Below, one piece after another: positions 2,591 to 63,984 of a stretch of DNA of 64,000 bases. The stretch covers positions 15,594 to 79,593 of the IMG/VR virus record IMGVR_UViG_3300029267_001718; one strand, 5' to 3'. A model generated the notes under the pieces. That model was given only the letters and a program-made list of their open reading frames with translations, did no database searches and was not told the DNA's origin. Source of the DNA: a virus. The number at the start of each line of letters is the position of its first letter. The stretch's first letter is position 1. The translations under genes were made by a program, and so were the position numbers.

Positions 2591-4192
2591 ATGCCAAGCG
2601 AATTAGTACGTGAACTTCTACGTGTCCCTGCTGCTATTCCAGTGGCGGTGGTTCCCTCTGATCCTGAAGCCGATACTGTAACGGTGAAGGGATTTGCATC
2701 GGTTGAAATCGAAGACCGTTCGGGCGATCTTGTTGCTCCGGAGGAATTCGATATCGATCAATTCATGGCAGCACCGAGCCTGATGGTCAACCACAAACTG
2801 TGGGTAGACCCTATGGGCAACGGAGTGGCCGTTGGTCGTCCGATGGAAATGTACGCGTCGAAACTCGTCGACATTGGTAGTGACGACAATTGGGGCGTGT
2901 ACGATCTGAAGACACGCGAACTCGTCAACGAATATCCGAAGGTCAAAGTCCCGAAACTCAAAGCGGGGGATCGCGGGCTGTTCGTTGTGGTCGAAGTGAC
3001 CGAGTACGATGTCGTGAAGATGGTCAAACGTGGCGAACTGTCTTCCTTCTCTTGGCGTGGTCTAGTTCAAGTCGACTACCAAACAAATCCGGACGGCACT
3101 GTTTCCCGGGTGCTGAAGAACATCGATCTCTACGAAATTTCCCTCGTGAACGTAGCGGACAATCCGAGTTCGACGTTTATGGTCGGGAAAATGGTGGCGG
3201 GGAAATTCGAAGGTGAGCCGTCCGAGGATACCTTGGCGGTTCACGTCGTTCGACTTGACAAGAGTCGCTTCGAAACTGAAGTAATGGCTCTTGAATATCT
3301 GAAGAATCACGATTTGGATTCTGAATCTGTGCGGTCGACTGACGAGGCATGGTTCGCACGTCAAAAACCCGCCGACGATTTCAGCAGTCTGAACGATCTT
3401 GTATCTGTGAAAATGAGCGACGGCGTTTTCGTTGTAGCTGGCCCGCTCACTGCCAGATTCTCTCCGCGTAAGGGTTTGAAAGATCCGCAACAACACTGGA
3501 TCGGTCAACTCCTTGGGAGTGAAGCTGCCGAAAATCTGACCAATTTGTATTCGCCTGGATCGGCTGGCGAGGACGCATCGAAAGATGGTCATACTTCATC
3601 CGCAAAGGAGAAAACGATGGCGGACGACGCTGCGGACAAGGGCCAGACGGACGATCAAACCGACGCTGGCGAAGACAAGGAAACCACCGAAACGCAGGAA
3701 ACCCAAACCGACGTGGAAAAGGGTCTTGCGAAATTGGCGGACGACGTTTCGACGAAAACGGCCAAGGCCGTCGCCGAAGCAATCGAGCCGCTGTTCGGCG
3801 GAGTTACCGAATCCCTCAAAACCGTCTCGACTGGACTGGAGCAAATTTCGTCCAAGATGGCGACGGTCGAACCCGACGCGGACACCGAGACCGCGACGAA
3901 GGACGCAGACGAAACGGAAACCGAAACGGACGAAACGGAAAATACGGAAGACACGGAAACGGAACCCGATGGCGACACCAAGACCATCGAGAAAACGTTG
4001 GCGGGACTCACCGATGGTCTCACCAAACTGAACGACAAGGTCGCGGAAGTTGCGAAGACCGCCGAGGGTCTCGCGAAAGCCGCCCCTTCCGGAACCGAAC
4101 GGGACGAGAAAGTCGAAACCGAAAAGACCGGCGAGAAAGACCCGAACAACTGCTTCGACAGCACGTTCGCGTTCCTCGGCGGATCGGAGTAA
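2591..4192 (+). CDS. HK97-family prohead protease with C-terminal acidic scaffolding region
   Basis: VKGFASVEIEDRSGDLV...NH...LSSFSWRG...LYEISLVNVADNP; acidic coiled-coil C-terminus; directly precedes the capsid gene. Confidence 0.85.
   Translation: MPSELVRELLRVPAAIPVAVVPSDPEADTVTVKGFASVEIEDRSGDLVAPEEFDIDQFMAAPSLMVNHKLWVDPMGNGVAVGRPMEMYASKLVDIGSDDNWGVYDLKTRELVNEYPKVKVPKLKAGDRGLFVVVEVTEYDVVKMVKRGELSSFSWRGLVQVDYQTNPDGTVSRVLKNIDLYEISLVNVADNPSSTFMVGKMVAGKFEGEPSEDTLAVHVVRLDKSRFETEVMALEYLKNHDLDSESVRSTDEAWFARQKPADDFSSLNDLVSVKMSDGVFVVAGPLTARFSPRKGLKDPQQHWIGQLLGSEAAENLTNLYSPGSAGEDASKDGHTSSAKEKTMADDAADKGQTDDQTDAGEDKETTETQETQTDVEKGLAKLADDVSTKTAKAVAEAIEPLFGGVTESLKTVSTGLEQISSKMATVEPDADTETATKDADETETETDETENTEDTETEPDGDTKTIEKTLAGLTDGLTKLNDKVAEVAKTAEGLAKAAPSGTERDEKVETEKTGEKDPNNCFDSTFAFLGGSE
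3617..4192 (+). CDS. Nested in-frame scaffolding protein (internal start)
   Basis: AAGGAG 6 nt before an in-frame ATG at 3617 (MADDAADK...); composition switches to D/E/T-rich here. Confidence 0.6.
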   Translation: MADDAADKGQTDDQTDAGEDKETTETQETQTDVEKGLAKLADDVSTKTAKAVAEAIEPLFGGVTESLKTVSTGLEQISSKMATVEPDADTETATKDADETETETDETENTEDTETEPDGDTKTIEKTLAGLTDGLTKLNDKVAEVAKTAEGLAKAAPSGTERDEKVETEKTGEKDPNNCFDSTFAFLGGSE

Positions 4193-4250
4193 CGTCCTCG
4201 GAGCCGGATCGTATTTTCCGAAAATCAACCTCCATTTAAGGAGATAAACT

Positions 4251-38438: not shown

Positions 38439-38596
38439 CTTTTGGATTCTTTGCAAAAATTTTGCCTTGCCGACGATGCTCAAGTGGTAGAAGTGAAAGC
38501 CCGTAAAATACGCACTTCAGAGCCATGCATCGTAGTCCGGATAGATGAAATCCGGCCAGCCCGCTGAAAAATTTTTGGATTTTTCAGGAATTCCCC

Positions 38597-38625
38597 TTGC
38601 AATCATCGCCGATACCGGCTATATT
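38597..38625 (+). promoter_or_regulatory. Early promoter with operator box GCCGATACCGGC (38608-38619)
   Basis: TTGCAA-17 bp-TATATT; motif repeated at five other sites. Confidence 0.8.
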
Positions 38626-38673
38626 TCAAACATGCGAAACACATTCACCACCACCGCAAACGGGACCAAAACC

Positions 38674-41720: not shown

Positions 41721-41943
41721 TGATGTTTAGACTCGGTCGATTTCAACTGCAGCTTTGGCGGAACGACGACTGGCGATTCTGGCAAGTCCTGATTGGCAGG
41801 GACGGCATTCGCTACGGATGGTTGTCTTTGTACTTTGGGCGAGTTGGGGTATTCGTTGCCGTTTGGCGGTAGGTGTCCCCGGGGACACTGGAATTTTTTT
41901 TTGAGTCTCAAATGCGAGTGGGAAGTGAATTGTAAAAAATTTA

Positions 41944-41993
41944 GCCGATTTCGGTGAAATCGGGTTGACGCGGTCGCCGATACCGGCTATATT
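41944..41993 (+). promoter_or_regulatory. Early promoter with two operator boxes
   Basis: GCCGATTTCGGT at 41944; TTGACG(41965)-17 bp-TATATT with GCCGATACCGGC at 41976-41987. Confidence 0.85.
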
Positions 41994-42040
41994 TCAAACA
42001 TCGGAAACAAATTCCACACCACCAAAACGGGAGCGACACG

Positions 42041-42877: not shown

Positions 42878-43870
42878 ATGAGCGAAACTGAAACATCAAC
42901 GGAACTGATTCTCGGCAGCGGCGTAGCCGGGGACATTTGGGAGGGAACTGCTTCGACGTTCGTTCCCATGCTCAAGCAGGACATGCCGATTGCCGAACGC
43001 AAGGAAGCGGTGCGAAACATCCTGCACGCAAGCGGCGAGATCGACGACAAATTGAATCTTGTCGCGGGCGAAATGCTTTACGAGGTTCACGCCAACGAGT
43101 ATTGGAAAGACTGGACGATCACAGTCGACGGCGAGGATCGTCCGTACTCGTCTTTCGAGGAATACTGCGAAGTCGAACTGGCGATGAAAAAACGCAAGGC
43201 TTACACGCTGCGGCAAGTCTACGAGCGTTTCTGTGTCGAACTCGACATTCCTCTCGAAACCCTACGCGGGCTGCAGTGGACGAAGGCACGGGCGATCCTC
43301 CCGGTGGTCACTGATGAGAACTGGGAAGAACTTCTCGGCAAAATCAAAACGCTGTCGAAATCCGAAGTCGAAAAACTGGTCAAGTCGATGAAGGCGGACG
43401 ACGATGACGATGACGGCGAGCCCGATGAGCTAGCCCGCATCGCCTTCAAACTCCACCCCGAACAATTCGAAGTGGTCACGTCGGCACTGAAGGTTGCCGA
43501 GTCGATGAGCACGTCTGAAGTCCCGGGAAATCAACTCCATTTGATCTGTATGGATTTTATCTCGGGTGCAGCCGGAACGGGCTTAACAGGAGCCCTGGCG
43601 AAGCTGGACGTGGTTGTCAAAAACATCGAACGAGCGTTTGGTGTCGAACTCGAAATCAAGGGAGTCGACGAAGACCGCTATTCGGCGTTGAAGGGTGCGG
43701 CGGACGCGGAACCCATTGATACCACATCGACGGACGCCGAGCCCGACGAGGACGATACAGACGTTGTGGGCGATCTGGATGACGTGGACGACGAGGAACC
43801 GTCTGACACGGATCTGGAAAGCGTACTCGCCGACGCGGAAGCGGCTGAAGCCGCTTTGGGGGACGACTGA
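42878..43870 (+). CDS. HTH-type DNA-binding protein (DUF3102-like) with acidic tail
   Basis: GEMLYEV...YSSFEEYCEVELAMKKRKAY; AGGAG RBS. Confidence 0.5.
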   Translation: MSETETSTELILGSGVAGDIWEGTASTFVPMLKQDMPIAERKEAVRNILHASGEIDDKLNLVAGEMLYEVHANEYWKDWTITVDGEDRPYSSFEEYCEVELAMKKRKAYTLRQVYERFCVELDIPLETLRGLQWTKARAILPVVTDENWEELLGKIKTLSKSEVEKLVKSMKADDDDDDGEPDELARIAFKLHPEQFEVVTSALKVAESMSTSEVPGNQLHLICMDFISGAAGTGLTGALAKLDVVVKNIERAFGVELEIKGVDEDRYSALKGAADAEPIDTTSTDAEPDEDDTDVVGDLDDVDDEEPSDTDLESVLADAEAAEAALGDD

Positions 43871-43875
43871 TCTAT

Positions 43876-44037
43876 GGTTGCGAAGATGCCATTGCCGAGG
43901 ACGTGCAGTATTGGCGGTCGGGCGGTCCCCGAGCGTCGGGTAACGCTGACACGTTGGGCTAAGTGGAAGGGTGGTTTCCCGGGGCGGAGTGCACGCCAAA
44001 CCGGGGAGGTAGGCTGGATCTTCGCAACCTCTTTTTC
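43876..44037 (+). ncRNA. Candidate ~155-nt structured RNA
   Basis: Perfect 12-bp closing stem GGTTGCGAAGAT/ATCTTCGCAACC followed by TCTTTTT; internal helices CGTGC/GCACG, GTCGG..GCTGAC, GGAAG/TTTCC. Confidence 0.6.
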
Positions 44038-44042
44038 TACTT

Positions 44043-44340
44043 GCGAGGGTAGCTCAATTGGCTGTTCACGGAGGGCGGCGGTATTAGGGACGCTGAACCC
44101 GTTTGCCTCAAGGCTCACTGGTTATCATAGCCGATTCGTGAACGACGCGGTGCGGACTTCGGTAGAGAACGTTGATACTGCCACTCCGCCCAAGCCCAAT
44201 GAAAGTCCACGTGGTGACTGCGGGCGAGGGAGCCGTTGTGTGAGCACGGATTCGGAGCATACGAAACGGAAGAATCCCTCTTCCGTATTGCGTTACTGCT
44301 ACGGAAACGAGGTTGGAGGTTCGAGTCCTCCCCCTCGCAC
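44043..44340 (+). ncRNA. tRNA-like RNA with large insertions in D-loop and anticodon loop
   Basis: Acceptor GCGAGGG/CCCTCGC+A; TAGCTCAATTGG; GGTAGAG at 44161; CGTT/AACG stem; AGGTT variable loop; T-arm GGAGG-TTCGAGT-CCTCC. Confidence 0.75.
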
Positions 44341-44386
44341 TTTATTTTGAATTGAAACGCTTCACCATAGAACCGGAGTAGGAAAA

Positions 44387-45094
44387 ATGGCGATTGGCAG
44401 TGTATCGGATCTGCGGAAATACCTGGACGAGCGGGCACGTAAAACGAAGAAATTGCTCGATGAAATCTCTACGGCTCAATTGAAGCGAGCCAAAAGTTTC
44501 TGGACATTGATCTGGAAGCTCACTGATCTTTGGGACCACATTCAATCGGGTTATCGACACGAGGGCAAACAGGGGCAAGAACTTCGAATGCTCACATACA
44601 CTGCCTATCTCCGACAACTGAAGGGACGCGTCAACGAACCCGATGCTATGTGGGGGCGTCAGGTTTACAAGCGTTGGGTGTCGGACGCGGATCGGGATAC
44701 GATCCTTGAAGGGTGTACCCCCGAAGCGTTGCTGCTTGTGGAATCCAAACGTCCTGTGTGTCATCGGCGGAAGATCATCACGAGGTTGCGTGCTCACGTC
44801 AAACGTGGAGCAACGTTGGTGACGGAAGACACGGTGCGACGTTGGTGGCAAGGATACATCGACGGCGAAGCGTTGGCGGAAACTCCCCCGCACACAATCG
44901 GGGAGGACGATCCGGATGTGTGTGCGTTCAAAATTCGAAAGCGTCGTAGTTCGGTTCTGAACGAATTGGAAATTGCGGAGCGTGTGGTAGAATTGGCGAA
45001 GAAGCATCGGGCGTTGATCGCTTCGCTATTCGAACTCTACGGCGAGGATTGGCGAACGGCGAAATCAGTGAAGGCACCCGGGGACACAAAATGA
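44387..45094 (+). CDS. Hypothetical basic protein
   Basis: GGAG RBS; 235 aa. Confidence 0.55.
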   Translation: MAIGSVSDLRKYLDERARKTKKLLDEISTAQLKRAKSFWTLIWKLTDLWDHIQSGYRHEGKQGQELRMLTYTAYLRQLKGRVNEPDAMWGRQVYKRWVSDADRDTILEGCTPEALLLVESKRPVCHRRKIITRLRAHVKRGATLVTEDTVRRWWQGYIDGEALAETPPHTIGEDDPDVCAFKIRKRRSSVLNELEIAERVVELAKKHRALIASLFELYGEDWRTAKSVKAPGDTK

Positions 45095-45907: not shown

Positions 45908-45958
45908 TTAAGCTTTGTTTTACGGGATTCAGAGGCCGGAAAATATTTTCGAAATTTC

Positions 45959-45999
45959 GCCGATATCGGCTTGATTTCTGAGCGAGGATGTGCGATAAT
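45959..45999 (+). promoter_or_regulatory. Promoter with perfect palindromic operator abutting the -35
   Basis: GCCGATATCGGC then TTGATT-17 bp-(TGn)GATAAT. Confidence 0.7.
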
Positions 46000-47661: not shown

Positions 47662-47711
47662 GCCGATTTCGGTGAATGGGTGTTGACTCGTTCGCCGATA
47701 CCGGCTATATT
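47662..47711 (+). promoter_or_regulatory. Early promoter with two operator boxes
   Basis: GCCGATTTCGGT at 47662; TTGACT(47683)-17 bp-TATATT with GCCGATACCGGC at 47694-47705. Confidence 0.85.
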
Positions 47712-47755
47712 TCACACAACGGGAAACGAACCACCACACAAACGGGAGCGACAAA

Positions 47756-59611: not shown

Positions 59612-59693
59612 GGGGACACGAGATCCCTGTCCCCCCAGTAAGCCCCGGGGTTTGAACGGGAAAATCCGTTTTCACCTTTTCGCTGCGGCTCAC

Positions 59694-59722
59694 TTGACTT
59701 CTTGGCCGATACCGGCTATATT
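59694..59722 (+). promoter_or_regulatory. Early promoter with operator box
   Basis: TTGACT-17 bp-TATATT; GCCGATACCGGC at 59705-59716. Confidence 0.85.
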
Positions 59723-59774
59723 CTCAACACAACGAAATTTGTACCACCACAAACTACGAAATGGAGGAAACAGG

Positions 59775-63724: not shown

Positions 63725-63907
63725 ATGTTGGTACTCTCACGGAAGAAAAATCAAAAAGTCGTTATTGACAACGGGACGGTCGTTGTCACTGTGGTTGAAG
63801 TTCGCGGCGACAAAGTGCGTCTGGGGATCGACGCACCCCGGGGGATCGACGTGCATCGGGCGGAAGTTCAGGACGCGATTGATCGGGAAAAATCTGAATC
63901 TGTTTGA
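63725..63907 (+). CDS. csrA: Carbon storage regulator CsrA/RsmA-family RNA-binding protein
   Basis: MLVLSRK...VTVVEVRGDKVRLGIDAPRGIDVHRAEV; AGGAG RBS. Confidence 0.93.
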   Translation: MLVLSRKKNQKVVIDNGTVVVTVVEVRGDKVRLGIDAPRGIDVHRAEVQDAIDREKSESV

Positions 63908-63984
63908 CAATCTAACCGATACCGGCTATATTGAAACTGACGGGAAAACACCTAGTTGACAACACTGCCGAAACCGGCTAAGAT
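63904..63984 (+). promoter_or_regulatory. Two tandem promoters, each with an operator box
   Basis: TTGACA-17 bp-TATATT (ACCGATACCGGC) and TTGACA-17 bp-TAAGAT (GCCGAAACCGGC); AAGGAGG at the window end. Confidence 0.85.

Follow-up and report, generated by a model that had tools for sequence, protein, structure and literature searches.

The locus studied here raises a simple question: what occupies the 517 nt (43871–44387) that separate two genes of an uncultured virus, one coding for a protein of 330 aa (42878–43870) and the other for a protein of 235 aa (44387–45094)? The window analyzed is a stretch of 64,000 nt from the record IMGVR_UViG_3300029267_001718, a phage record of 79.6 kb that is 73% complete, and the spacer, its RNA domains, and its open frame are described on the plus strand. 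The original prediction placed two RNAs in this spacer and proposed that one contiguous segment of the second, tRNA-like RNA pairs with three separate parts of the first, as a guide would with its targets, either inside a single pseudoknotted RNA of about 465 nt or in a switch or ribozyme made of two RNAs. The explanation that we favor, with roughly even confidence, is that of a non-decoding RNA built on the frame of a tRNA-Gly, with a large cargo in its D loop and a second, closed RNA upstream, which is probably excised by tRNA-processing enzymes.

Genomic setting of the spacer

Metagenomes of marine sediment and of seawater, produced in several studies, contain this phage, and its sequence was identical every time. 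No variants were found in metagenome contigs from four sequencing runs, which yielded the identical phage only, in fragments. The promoter used by this phage (TTGAC-N6-GCCGATACCGGC-TATATT) contains a palindromic operator and is sigma-70-like, which indicates that the host is a bacterium. In this region the motif is located at positions 38596, 41964, 45947, and 47682, and none was found between 41964 and 45947. A second palindrome, GTGTCCCCGGGGACAC, unrelated to the operator and resembling a terminator, occurs in 11 places, with no copy between 41888 and 50221. A consensus scan of the region for sigma-70 promoters and terminators gave no match.

Since neither the promoter/operator motif nor the GTGTCCCCGGGGACAC palindrome appears between 41964 and 45947, the stretch would be transcribed within an operon. 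Any RNA encoded in it would therefore need to be excised in order to exist separately, and this fits a processing signal in the shape of a tRNA. We judge 43871–44387 to be no gene, but a structured, non-coding stretch that is co-transcribed inside a phage operon and has two RNA domains. The open frame that it contains is considered further below.

Two RNA domains and their relatives

The downstream domain is an RNA of 297 nt (44043–44339) which, judging from its sequence, its fold, and its comparison with tRNA-Gly, is derived from a tRNA-Gly. Its ends form an acceptor stem of 7 bp (44043–49/44332–38), followed by a discriminator A (A73, 44339), and CCA is not encoded. Between the two strands we found a D stem, GCUC(A)/(U)GAGC (44052–56/44241–45), A26 (44246), a variable loop of 5 nt, AGGUU (44310–14), in which G45 and U48 are present, and a canonical T arm, GGAGG-UUCGAGU-CCUCC (44315–31), with a 7-nt loop of the TTCRANN type. 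The nucleotides of the tRNA core are kept at U8, A14, G18, G19, G53, U54, U55, C56, A58, and C61, and the junction spacing is also canonical (the acceptor and D stems are 2 nt apart, 1 nt follows the D stem, and the variable loop has 5 nt). While the acceptor stem, the T arm, the D stem, and the U8/A14/G18/G19 set are thus all those of a canonical tRNA, an anticodon arm with a 5-bp stem, a 7-nt loop, U33, and a purine at position 37 is missing. Its 17 nt are replaced by a rod of 63 nt (44247–44309, from the fold prediction), the apical loop of which, AAUCCCU (44273–79), has a central UCC, with A33 and C37, so that both U33 and the purine are absent. The other departure from a tRNA is much larger, a structured insertion of 179 nt in the D loop (44062–44240), located directly after G18-G19 and delimited by the fold and by comparison with canonical tRNA-Gly sequences.

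Over its first 19 nt, the tRNA-like RNA does not differ from tRNA-Gly (GCC/UCC) genes at their 5′ end. This match was retrieved at 12 bacterial genome loci, in genomes of Omnitrophota, Planctomycetia, and Cloacimonadota; ten of them are tRNA-Gly according to ARAGORN and an eleventh (L032, which ends at the locus end) is so by its letters. It is also found in one tRNA-Gly(UCC) of a jumbo phage. The identity set of tRNA-Gly consists of G1-C72, C2-G71, (G3-C70), (G10-Y25):G45, C35, and C36, with U73 in bacteria (PMC9976931). From this glycine set, the tRNA-like RNA has G1-C72, C2-G71, G3-C70, G10-C25, and G45, together with A73 in place of the bacterial U73 (PMC9976931); C35 and C36 are present provided that the apical loop of the rod is taken as the anticodon loop.

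The predicted fold also agrees with the tRNA frame. In the partition function the acceptor stem has a probability of 1.0, the T arm of 0.96, and the apical helix of the rod of 0.88, and the folding z-score of the tRNA-like RNA is −2.1 compared to shuffles. ARAGORN, run for tRNAs (intron mode included) on the window and on the whole record, reported 0 genes. When the D-loop insertion is cut out in silico, it does call a tRNA, for 9 out of 9 choices of the boundaries. No match was obtained at the gathering score of Rfam release 15. The best one was to tRNA-Sec (21.5 bits, E 0.14) and corresponds to an alternative tRNA-like fold of 115 nt that could be formed with GCGAGGG, the sequence of the 5′ acceptor strand, which recurs at 44224–44230. 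This alternative fold is without G18-G19, its ensemble energy is 9 kcal/mol worse, and its probability is about 0. The second GCGAGGG at 44224 is in itself a hint of either an alternative fold or a duplication; in the corresponding check for a tandem duplication, the similarity of 44043–44223 to 44224–44345 was not above that of shuffles.

The upstream domain is an RNA of 154 nt (43876–44029), with several predicted hairpins closed by a perfect stem of 12 bp (43876–87/44018–29), which has a probability of 1.0 in the partition function. Its folding z-score is −2.7 compared to shuffles. A U-rich spacer of 13 nt (44030–44042) lies between both domains. The core of the closing stem, GCGAAGA/UCUUCGC, resembles the acceptor stem of the tRNA-like RNA, GCGAGGG/CCCUCGC, and both differences are changed on both strands. 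Because of this compensated likeness, the upstream RNA may be a paralog of the tRNA-like one that has diverged greatly; comparisons of the upstream RNA with 44043–44223 or 44224–44345 gave similarities no higher than those of shuffles.

From the shape of the molecule we can propose how these RNAs would be released. With its acceptor stem, T arm, and elbow intact, the tRNA-like RNA would be cut by the RNase P of the host at 44043 and by the 3′ tRNA-processing nuclease after 44339. Both cuts would split the operon transcript and set free a stable, non-decoding, tRNA-framed RNA, while the upstream domain would be freed as the product of the 5′ leader.

Relatives of this locus were retrieved through its neighbors and by several sequence searches. 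A blastn search against the phage collection gave a sole match, to 33 nt of the T arm, and no loci were found in a locus search with the 330-aa protein or the MoxR protein alone. The 330-aa neighbor has 1314 homologs (best identity 51%), and an alignment-based search provided 24 related loci, none of which has a sequence homolog of either RNA. DNA searches of the whole records of 10 related phages produced matches of T-arm size only. When the tRNA frame was used as a pattern, with a D-loop gap of 165–195 nt, only tRNA arrays were recovered, and a search with the exact 3′ end returned a single minihelix, an unrelated one, in the 64-kb phage L044, with a common T-arm-plus-acceptor sequence of 25 nt. 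Rfam searches at E ≤ 10, covering the region and the related loci, gave nothing meaningful. The 235-aa neighbor is without homologs, with weak DUF3102-like leads only.

Most relatives have the gene order 330-aa homolog, SWIM protein, MoxR ATPase, so that slot would have received the RNA stretch, together with the orphan gene for the 235-aa protein, as an insertion. tRNA-shaped RNAs that escape tRNA finders are also found in related phages. In the same slot of L009, the only related phage with such an RNA there, we found one of 122 nt, in which an acceptor stem of 7 bp and a canonical T arm are accompanied by a long arm; it is preceded by a small coding gene, with no upstream RNA. Another phage, L046, has a non-coding stretch of about 700 nt in which U-rich spacers, similar to the 13-nt one at 44030–44042, separate at least three tRNA-shaped elements; one of these has the loop UGCAAGU where the T loop is expected. 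The elements of L009 and L046 share no sequence with the insertion or with the upstream domain.

A different origin for the whole stretch is conceivable, namely that it is evolutionary debris, a decaying tRNA cluster or tandem duplication gained together with the 235-aa gene and devoid of function, in which any complementarity is the chance result of G-rich sequence facing a C-rich patch. We regard this as possible, if rather doubtful. It would be in agreement with the stretch and the 235-aa gene being an insertion missing from the relatives, with the failure to find homologs, and with the presence of three GCGA(A/G)G 5′ strands (43879, 44043, and 44224) for just two matching 3′ strands. However, the tRNA core is intact at all universally conserved positions, and a 19-nt 5′ end unchanged with respect to cellular tRNA-Gly would be surprising after decay. 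The perfect 12-bp stem and the folding energies below those of shuffles also favor structure, samples of sediment and seawater taken in several studies have the same sequence, and related phages keep several tRNA-shaped RNAs that are not tRNAs.

Complementarity between the two domains

The pairing that gave rise to the idea of a guide and its targets involves a C-rich strand of 31 nt (44170–44200) within the insertion of the tRNA-like RNA and three G-rich sites in the upstream RNA (43905–16, 43952–60, and 43982–91). When the sequence was re-read, the first two helices were found exactly as claimed: 44170–44181 pairs with 43905–43916 (helix a, 12 bp with 3 G:U) and 44182–44191 pairs perfectly with 43982–43991 (helix b, 10 bp). 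The third (helix c) is also present at 44193–44200/43953–43960, with its length corrected from 8 to 9 bp (43952–43960/44193–44201). The accompanying short helices CGTGC/GCACG, GGAAG/TTTCC, and GGACTT/AAGTCC (44154/44203) are located at the positions given for them, and an alternative partner for the strand, GGCGGTATT, does exist at 44077–85. Among all ungapped helices of at least 8 bp in 43871–44345, helices a, b, and c rank third, fourth, and eighth.

How unusual this is depends on the measure applied. We used a three-block score, in which a 31-nt window is paired as contiguous blocks of at least 7 bp anywhere in the 154-nt upstream RNA, a score devised post hoc, once the pairing pattern was known. 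Its maximum is 73 and falls exactly at 44170. Values of at least 73 were reached by 10 out of 300 dinucleotide shuffles of the tRNA-like RNA (62.6 ± 6.0) and by one out of 300 shuffles of the same kind of the upstream RNA (60.0 ± 5.6). The same was true for one out of 302 real 154-nt windows of the same genome used as target (56.7 ± 6.8), and for one out of 2389 C-rich genome 31-mers used as query (33.4 ± 14.7). With RNAduplex, the 31-mer binds the upstream RNA at −33.6 kcal/mol compared to −24.1 ± 4.6 for genome 31-mers, 2.4% of which are equally good; for the two whole RNAs, the RNAduplex value is equaled by shuffles. The original prediction had asked for complementarity beyond that of shuffled controls; the three-block score is rarely reached by the nulls (1/300 to 10/300), and the standard single-site measure, RNAduplex, is less striking, with the 31-mer in the top 2.4%. 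Overall, the complementarity is unusual at roughly the 0.3–3% level with post hoc scoring, and given that the score was shaped post hoc we rate it as suggestive but not compelling, at about the 1% level at best.

Composition may have a part in this. The 31-nt strand is 42% C, compared to 24% C in the surrounding region, so that many G-rich partners are possible, as would be expected if the stretch were debris and its complementarity due to chance.

The folding of the RNA gives a different picture from the letters. In the partition function of 43871–44345, helices a, b, and c have an ensemble probability of about 0, and the strand pairs locally, with 44069–87 (p 0.6–0.7) and with 44222–30 (p about 0.7). 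It is mostly occupied, with an unpaired probability below 0.2 at most positions. Imposing the helices on a single molecule costs 6.3 kcal/mol for b and c together and 18.6 kcal/mol for a. The pseudoknotted fold proposed earlier, with a, b, and c formed, reaches about −187 to −191 kcal/mol and is no better than the minimum free energy fold (−192.4 kcal/mol), and every one of the forced folds disrupts the acceptor and D stems as well as the closing stem of 12 bp. The a, b, and c pairings are thus not predicted to form, since they lose to local folding in these models. One likely explanation for the 31-nt strand is that, paired with 44069–87 and 44222–30 as the fold predicts, it supplies the 3′ side of the helices at the base of the insertion domain.

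The two domains could also make contact with both closing stems kept. In this arrangement the duplexes amount to −46.3 kcal/mol and the opening of the sites to 31.9 kcal/mol (11.7 + 20.2), a balance that leaves out the junction and topological costs of forming some 30 bp between domains that are both closed. For the individual sites, the net energies after opening are −0.5, −5.8, and −4.2 kcal/mol.

These results bear on the reading under which the 31-nt strand does pair with the three upstream sites, within one RNA of about 470 nt or between two processed RNAs, and acts as a switch or a guide/target complex, which we consider unlikely. It can rely on three helices that are present and abut on one strand, on a score of 73 attained in only 1/300, 10/300, 1/302, and 1/2389 null trials, and on the favorable balance of the contact between domains (−46.3 against 31.9 kcal/mol). 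The resemblance of the local partner at 44069–87 to the upstream sites is likewise what would be expected of a switch with competing partners. On the other hand, the score is post hoc and as many as 2.4% of genome 31-mers equal the strand by RNAduplex, the net energies of single sites are small and helices a, b, and c have probabilities close to 0, and the local partner of the strand is equally good. As a single molecule, the fold would destroy a tRNA frame that is clearly conserved with respect to real tRNA-Gly genes, and as two stem-closed domains it would have to pay the topological cost of some 30 bp. Furthermore, L009 has its tRNA-shaped RNA without an upstream RNA, and no ribozyme or other family of Rfam matches. 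The specific version in which the strand toggles between its own G-rich partner and the three separated G-rich sites upstream, stapling a multi-way junction as a switch or as a processed RNA-RNA assembly, seems to us distinctly improbable.

It appears most likely, then, that the complementarity to the three sites is incidental or represents no more than a minor alternative pairing, and that there is no guide/target mechanism. The complementarity is present in the sequence as described, and its statistics are suggestive; being rarer than the nulls predict (1/300 to 10/300), it does not make the word "incidental" secure. The guide/target idea has the complementarity, of modest significance, as its sole basis, with no independent support, and the competing local fold is better predicted. 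If true, it would be of greater import than the tRNA-framed RNA, a natural device in which two RNAs are stapled together.

Other readings and comparison with known systems

Returning to the tRNA frame, the element could be a decoding tRNA in which the expansions of the D loop and of the anticodon arm are removed post-transcriptionally as introns. This is very improbable. After deletion of the D-loop insertion, ARAGORN in intron mode does model a tRNA of 90 nt with an intron of 31 nt, a loop UUCGUAU (U33 and A37), and anticodon CGU, an assignment to which we give little weight because the intron search has many free parameters; alternatively, the apical loop of the rod reads UCC. However, the anticodon given by ARAGORN (Thr) conflicts with the glycine frame, and by eye there is no bulge-helix-bulge motif at either boundary. 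The sigma-70-like promoters imply a bacterial host, and bacteria are not known to have a tRNA splicing endonuclease. There is no group I intron signal at E ≤ 10 in 43700–44500, and 31 nt would be too short for self-splicing.

The stretch also contains an open frame of 158 codons (P0001, 43874–44350), annotated as a protein by public gene callers. As a real gene it would code for a basic protein, and the RNA-like features would be a coincidence. The frame fills the gap almost exactly, starting 4 nt past the upstream stop, and one as long appears in only 0.66% of shuffles, a rarity that counts against a non-coding RNA. Nevertheless, its codon score is −0.12, compared to 0.29 ± 0.10 in phage genes and equal to the 95th percentile of off-frame windows (−0.12), and its GC content per codon position (.53/.63/.58) departs from that of genes (.58/.42/.59). 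Also against a gene, the predicted product has a pI of 10.3, with R, S, G, P, and T abundant. No homolog was found among 5.8 billion proteins, nor any match to PHROG families. Because of this off-frame-like codon score and GC pattern, and the absence of homologs, we judge the frame non-coding, and a complete tRNA-Gly frame inside a coding sequence would have to be there by chance; a real gene is therefore very unlikely. Least credible of all is that the tRNA-like 3′ end serves as an attP core, with which the phage would integrate at a tRNA gene of its host: the identical 25-nt T-arm-plus-acceptor sequence in the unrelated phage L044 would suit it, but no tyrosine integrase (PF00589) was found in the 73%-complete record or in the complete L044 phage, which speaks against it, and such a core needs only the 3′ part of a tRNA, whereas the 5′ acceptor strand, the D stem, and the elbow are also present here.

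Several RNA classes were considered and set aside. For RNase P RNA there is only a word resembling GAAAGUCC, with no Rfam match. Hammerhead and twister ribozymes and a T-box were likewise discarded. A retron ncRNA was rejected as there is no RT nearby, and archaeal bulge-helix-bulge introns as the promoters are of bacterial type.

The non-decoding RNA on a tRNA-Gly frame would, if real and expressed, be a striking addition to the growing set of phage RNAs that borrow the body of a tRNA to carry a large non-decoding cargo, probably for the sake of processing and stability. Placed within a protein operon, it would double as transcript punctuation. Such elements escape both tRNA finders and Rfam, and the stretch described here has even been annotated as a protein.

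Among its closest known counterparts are the stable RNAs species 1 and 2 of phage T4 (rnaC and rnaD) and similar tRNA-shaped phage RNAs, which have tRNA-like ends and an unusable anticodon and are presumably matured by tRNA-processing enzymes. Like them, the RNA presented here is phage-encoded and non-decoding and has tRNA-like ends. In contrast, it is a recognizable tRNA-Gly with an insertion of 179 nt in the D loop and a rod of 63 nt, 297 nt in total, it stands alone in a protein-coding operon and outside any tRNA cluster, and beyond the T arm it has no sequence similarity to records of the phage collection. The t-elements of tRNA punctuation and the mascRNA-type signals are tRNA-shaped modules that, within a longer transcript, recruit RNase P and the 3′ nuclease. 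Those are small, minimal mimics, whereas about 240 nt of extra structured RNA are found here, beyond the needs of a cutting signal, and processing is deduced from shape.

With tmRNA it shares a length of about 300 nt, an acceptor stem and a T arm at the ends, and a large structured middle, but it has G3-C70 instead of G3:U70, a normal D stem, and G18-G19. Its extra RNA is predicted to occupy the D loop and a hairpin rod, while in tmRNA a P2 helix leads to pseudoknots and the tag frame. Searches for tmRNA with ARAGORN and Rfam release 15 detected none. A tRNA frame interrupted by some 200 nt of structured RNA is also typical of tRNA genes with group I introns. Here, however, the insertion comes after G19 in the D loop and not in the anticodon loop, and the Rfam group I intron model gave no match on 43700–44500 at E ≤ 10, which places the element outside this class.

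Phages also encode large, ornate non-coding RNAs such as GOLLD and ROOL, often beside tRNA genes. The present RNA has no match to them in Rfam and is nested within a tRNA frame rather than adjacent to tRNAs. A last parallel is provided by engineered tRNA scaffolds, in which a cargo RNA is placed in the body of a tRNA, typically replacing the anticodon arm, for folding, processing, and stability. A tRNA-aptamer fusion that can be compared with them is that of PMC5397188. The element described here would be a natural one of this kind, and it has its main cargo in the D loop.

Helices of the two RNA domains and the open frame across them

The upstream domain, a 154-nt RNA preceding the tRNA-Gly-framed element, has a closing-stem core (GCGAAGA/UCUUCGC, 43879–43885/44019–44025) that resembles the acceptor stem of the element itself (GCGAGGG/CCCUCGC, 44043–44049/44332–44338). 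Because the two stems differ at only two pairs, each of them altered on both strands, their likeness hints that the upstream domain may be a derived paralog. A potential 13-bp helix with four G:U pairs would join positions 44144–44156, in the D-loop insertion, to 44282–44294, in the 3' strand of the rod. Among the helices of the region it ranks second-best, with an ensemble probability of 0.03. The structured RNA is also spanned by a 158-codon open frame (43874–44350), which only 0.66% of dinucleotide shuffles keep open. Despite this rarity, its codon statistics are those of non-coding sequence.

Adjoining gene and repeated palindromes

The RNA and the 235-aa gene that adjoins it (44387–45094) seem to have been acquired in a single insertion. 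The gene product has no sequence homologs among 5.8 billion proteins, and the leads given by a language model and by fold comparison, toward DUF3102-like helical proteins, are no more than weak. Two palindromic motifs recur in the window. The first is a putative operator lying between the hexamers of a sigma-70-like promoter (TTGAC-N6-GCCGATACCGGC-TATATT), found at 38596–38632, 41964–42000, 45947–45983, 47682–47718, 59693–59729, and 63903–63939; this repeated motif marks the transcription units of the phage. The second, the 16-nt GTGTCCCCGGGGACAC, occurs at 11 sites against 0.3 expected (2498, 13714, 26881, 29226, 37158, 41873, 50221, 57782, 58850, 59446, and 62501) and may serve either as a terminator or as a binding site for a protein. 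A promoter follows the copy at 41873 about 90 nt downstream.

tRNA-shaped RNAs in other phages

An unrelated, complete 64-kb AT-rich phage (L044), in which no integrase was found, carries on its minus strand (~505–552) an acceptor-plus-T-arm minihelix that has a 25-nt 3' sequence in common with our element; the 5' strand of the minihelix runs into a gene's stop codon. Among related phages, the 99-kb relative G004 (locus L046) has ~700 nt of non-coding sequence (minus strand, ~975–1665) with at least three tRNA-shaped elements (1059–1132, ~1217–1371, and 1383–1527), undetected by ARAGORN and Rfam. One of these shows a UGCAAGU loop where the T loop would be expected, and a similar hairpin, GGAGG-UGCAAGC-CCUCC, is present in locus L011 (~4130–4160). 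Another relative (L009) encodes a 122-nt tRNA-shaped RNA (4072–4193), detected by no finder, with the acceptor GCAGUGG/CCACUGC, a canonical T arm and a 51-nt long arm. It lies immediately 5' of the SWIM-finger gene, in a slot identical to that of the window's element.
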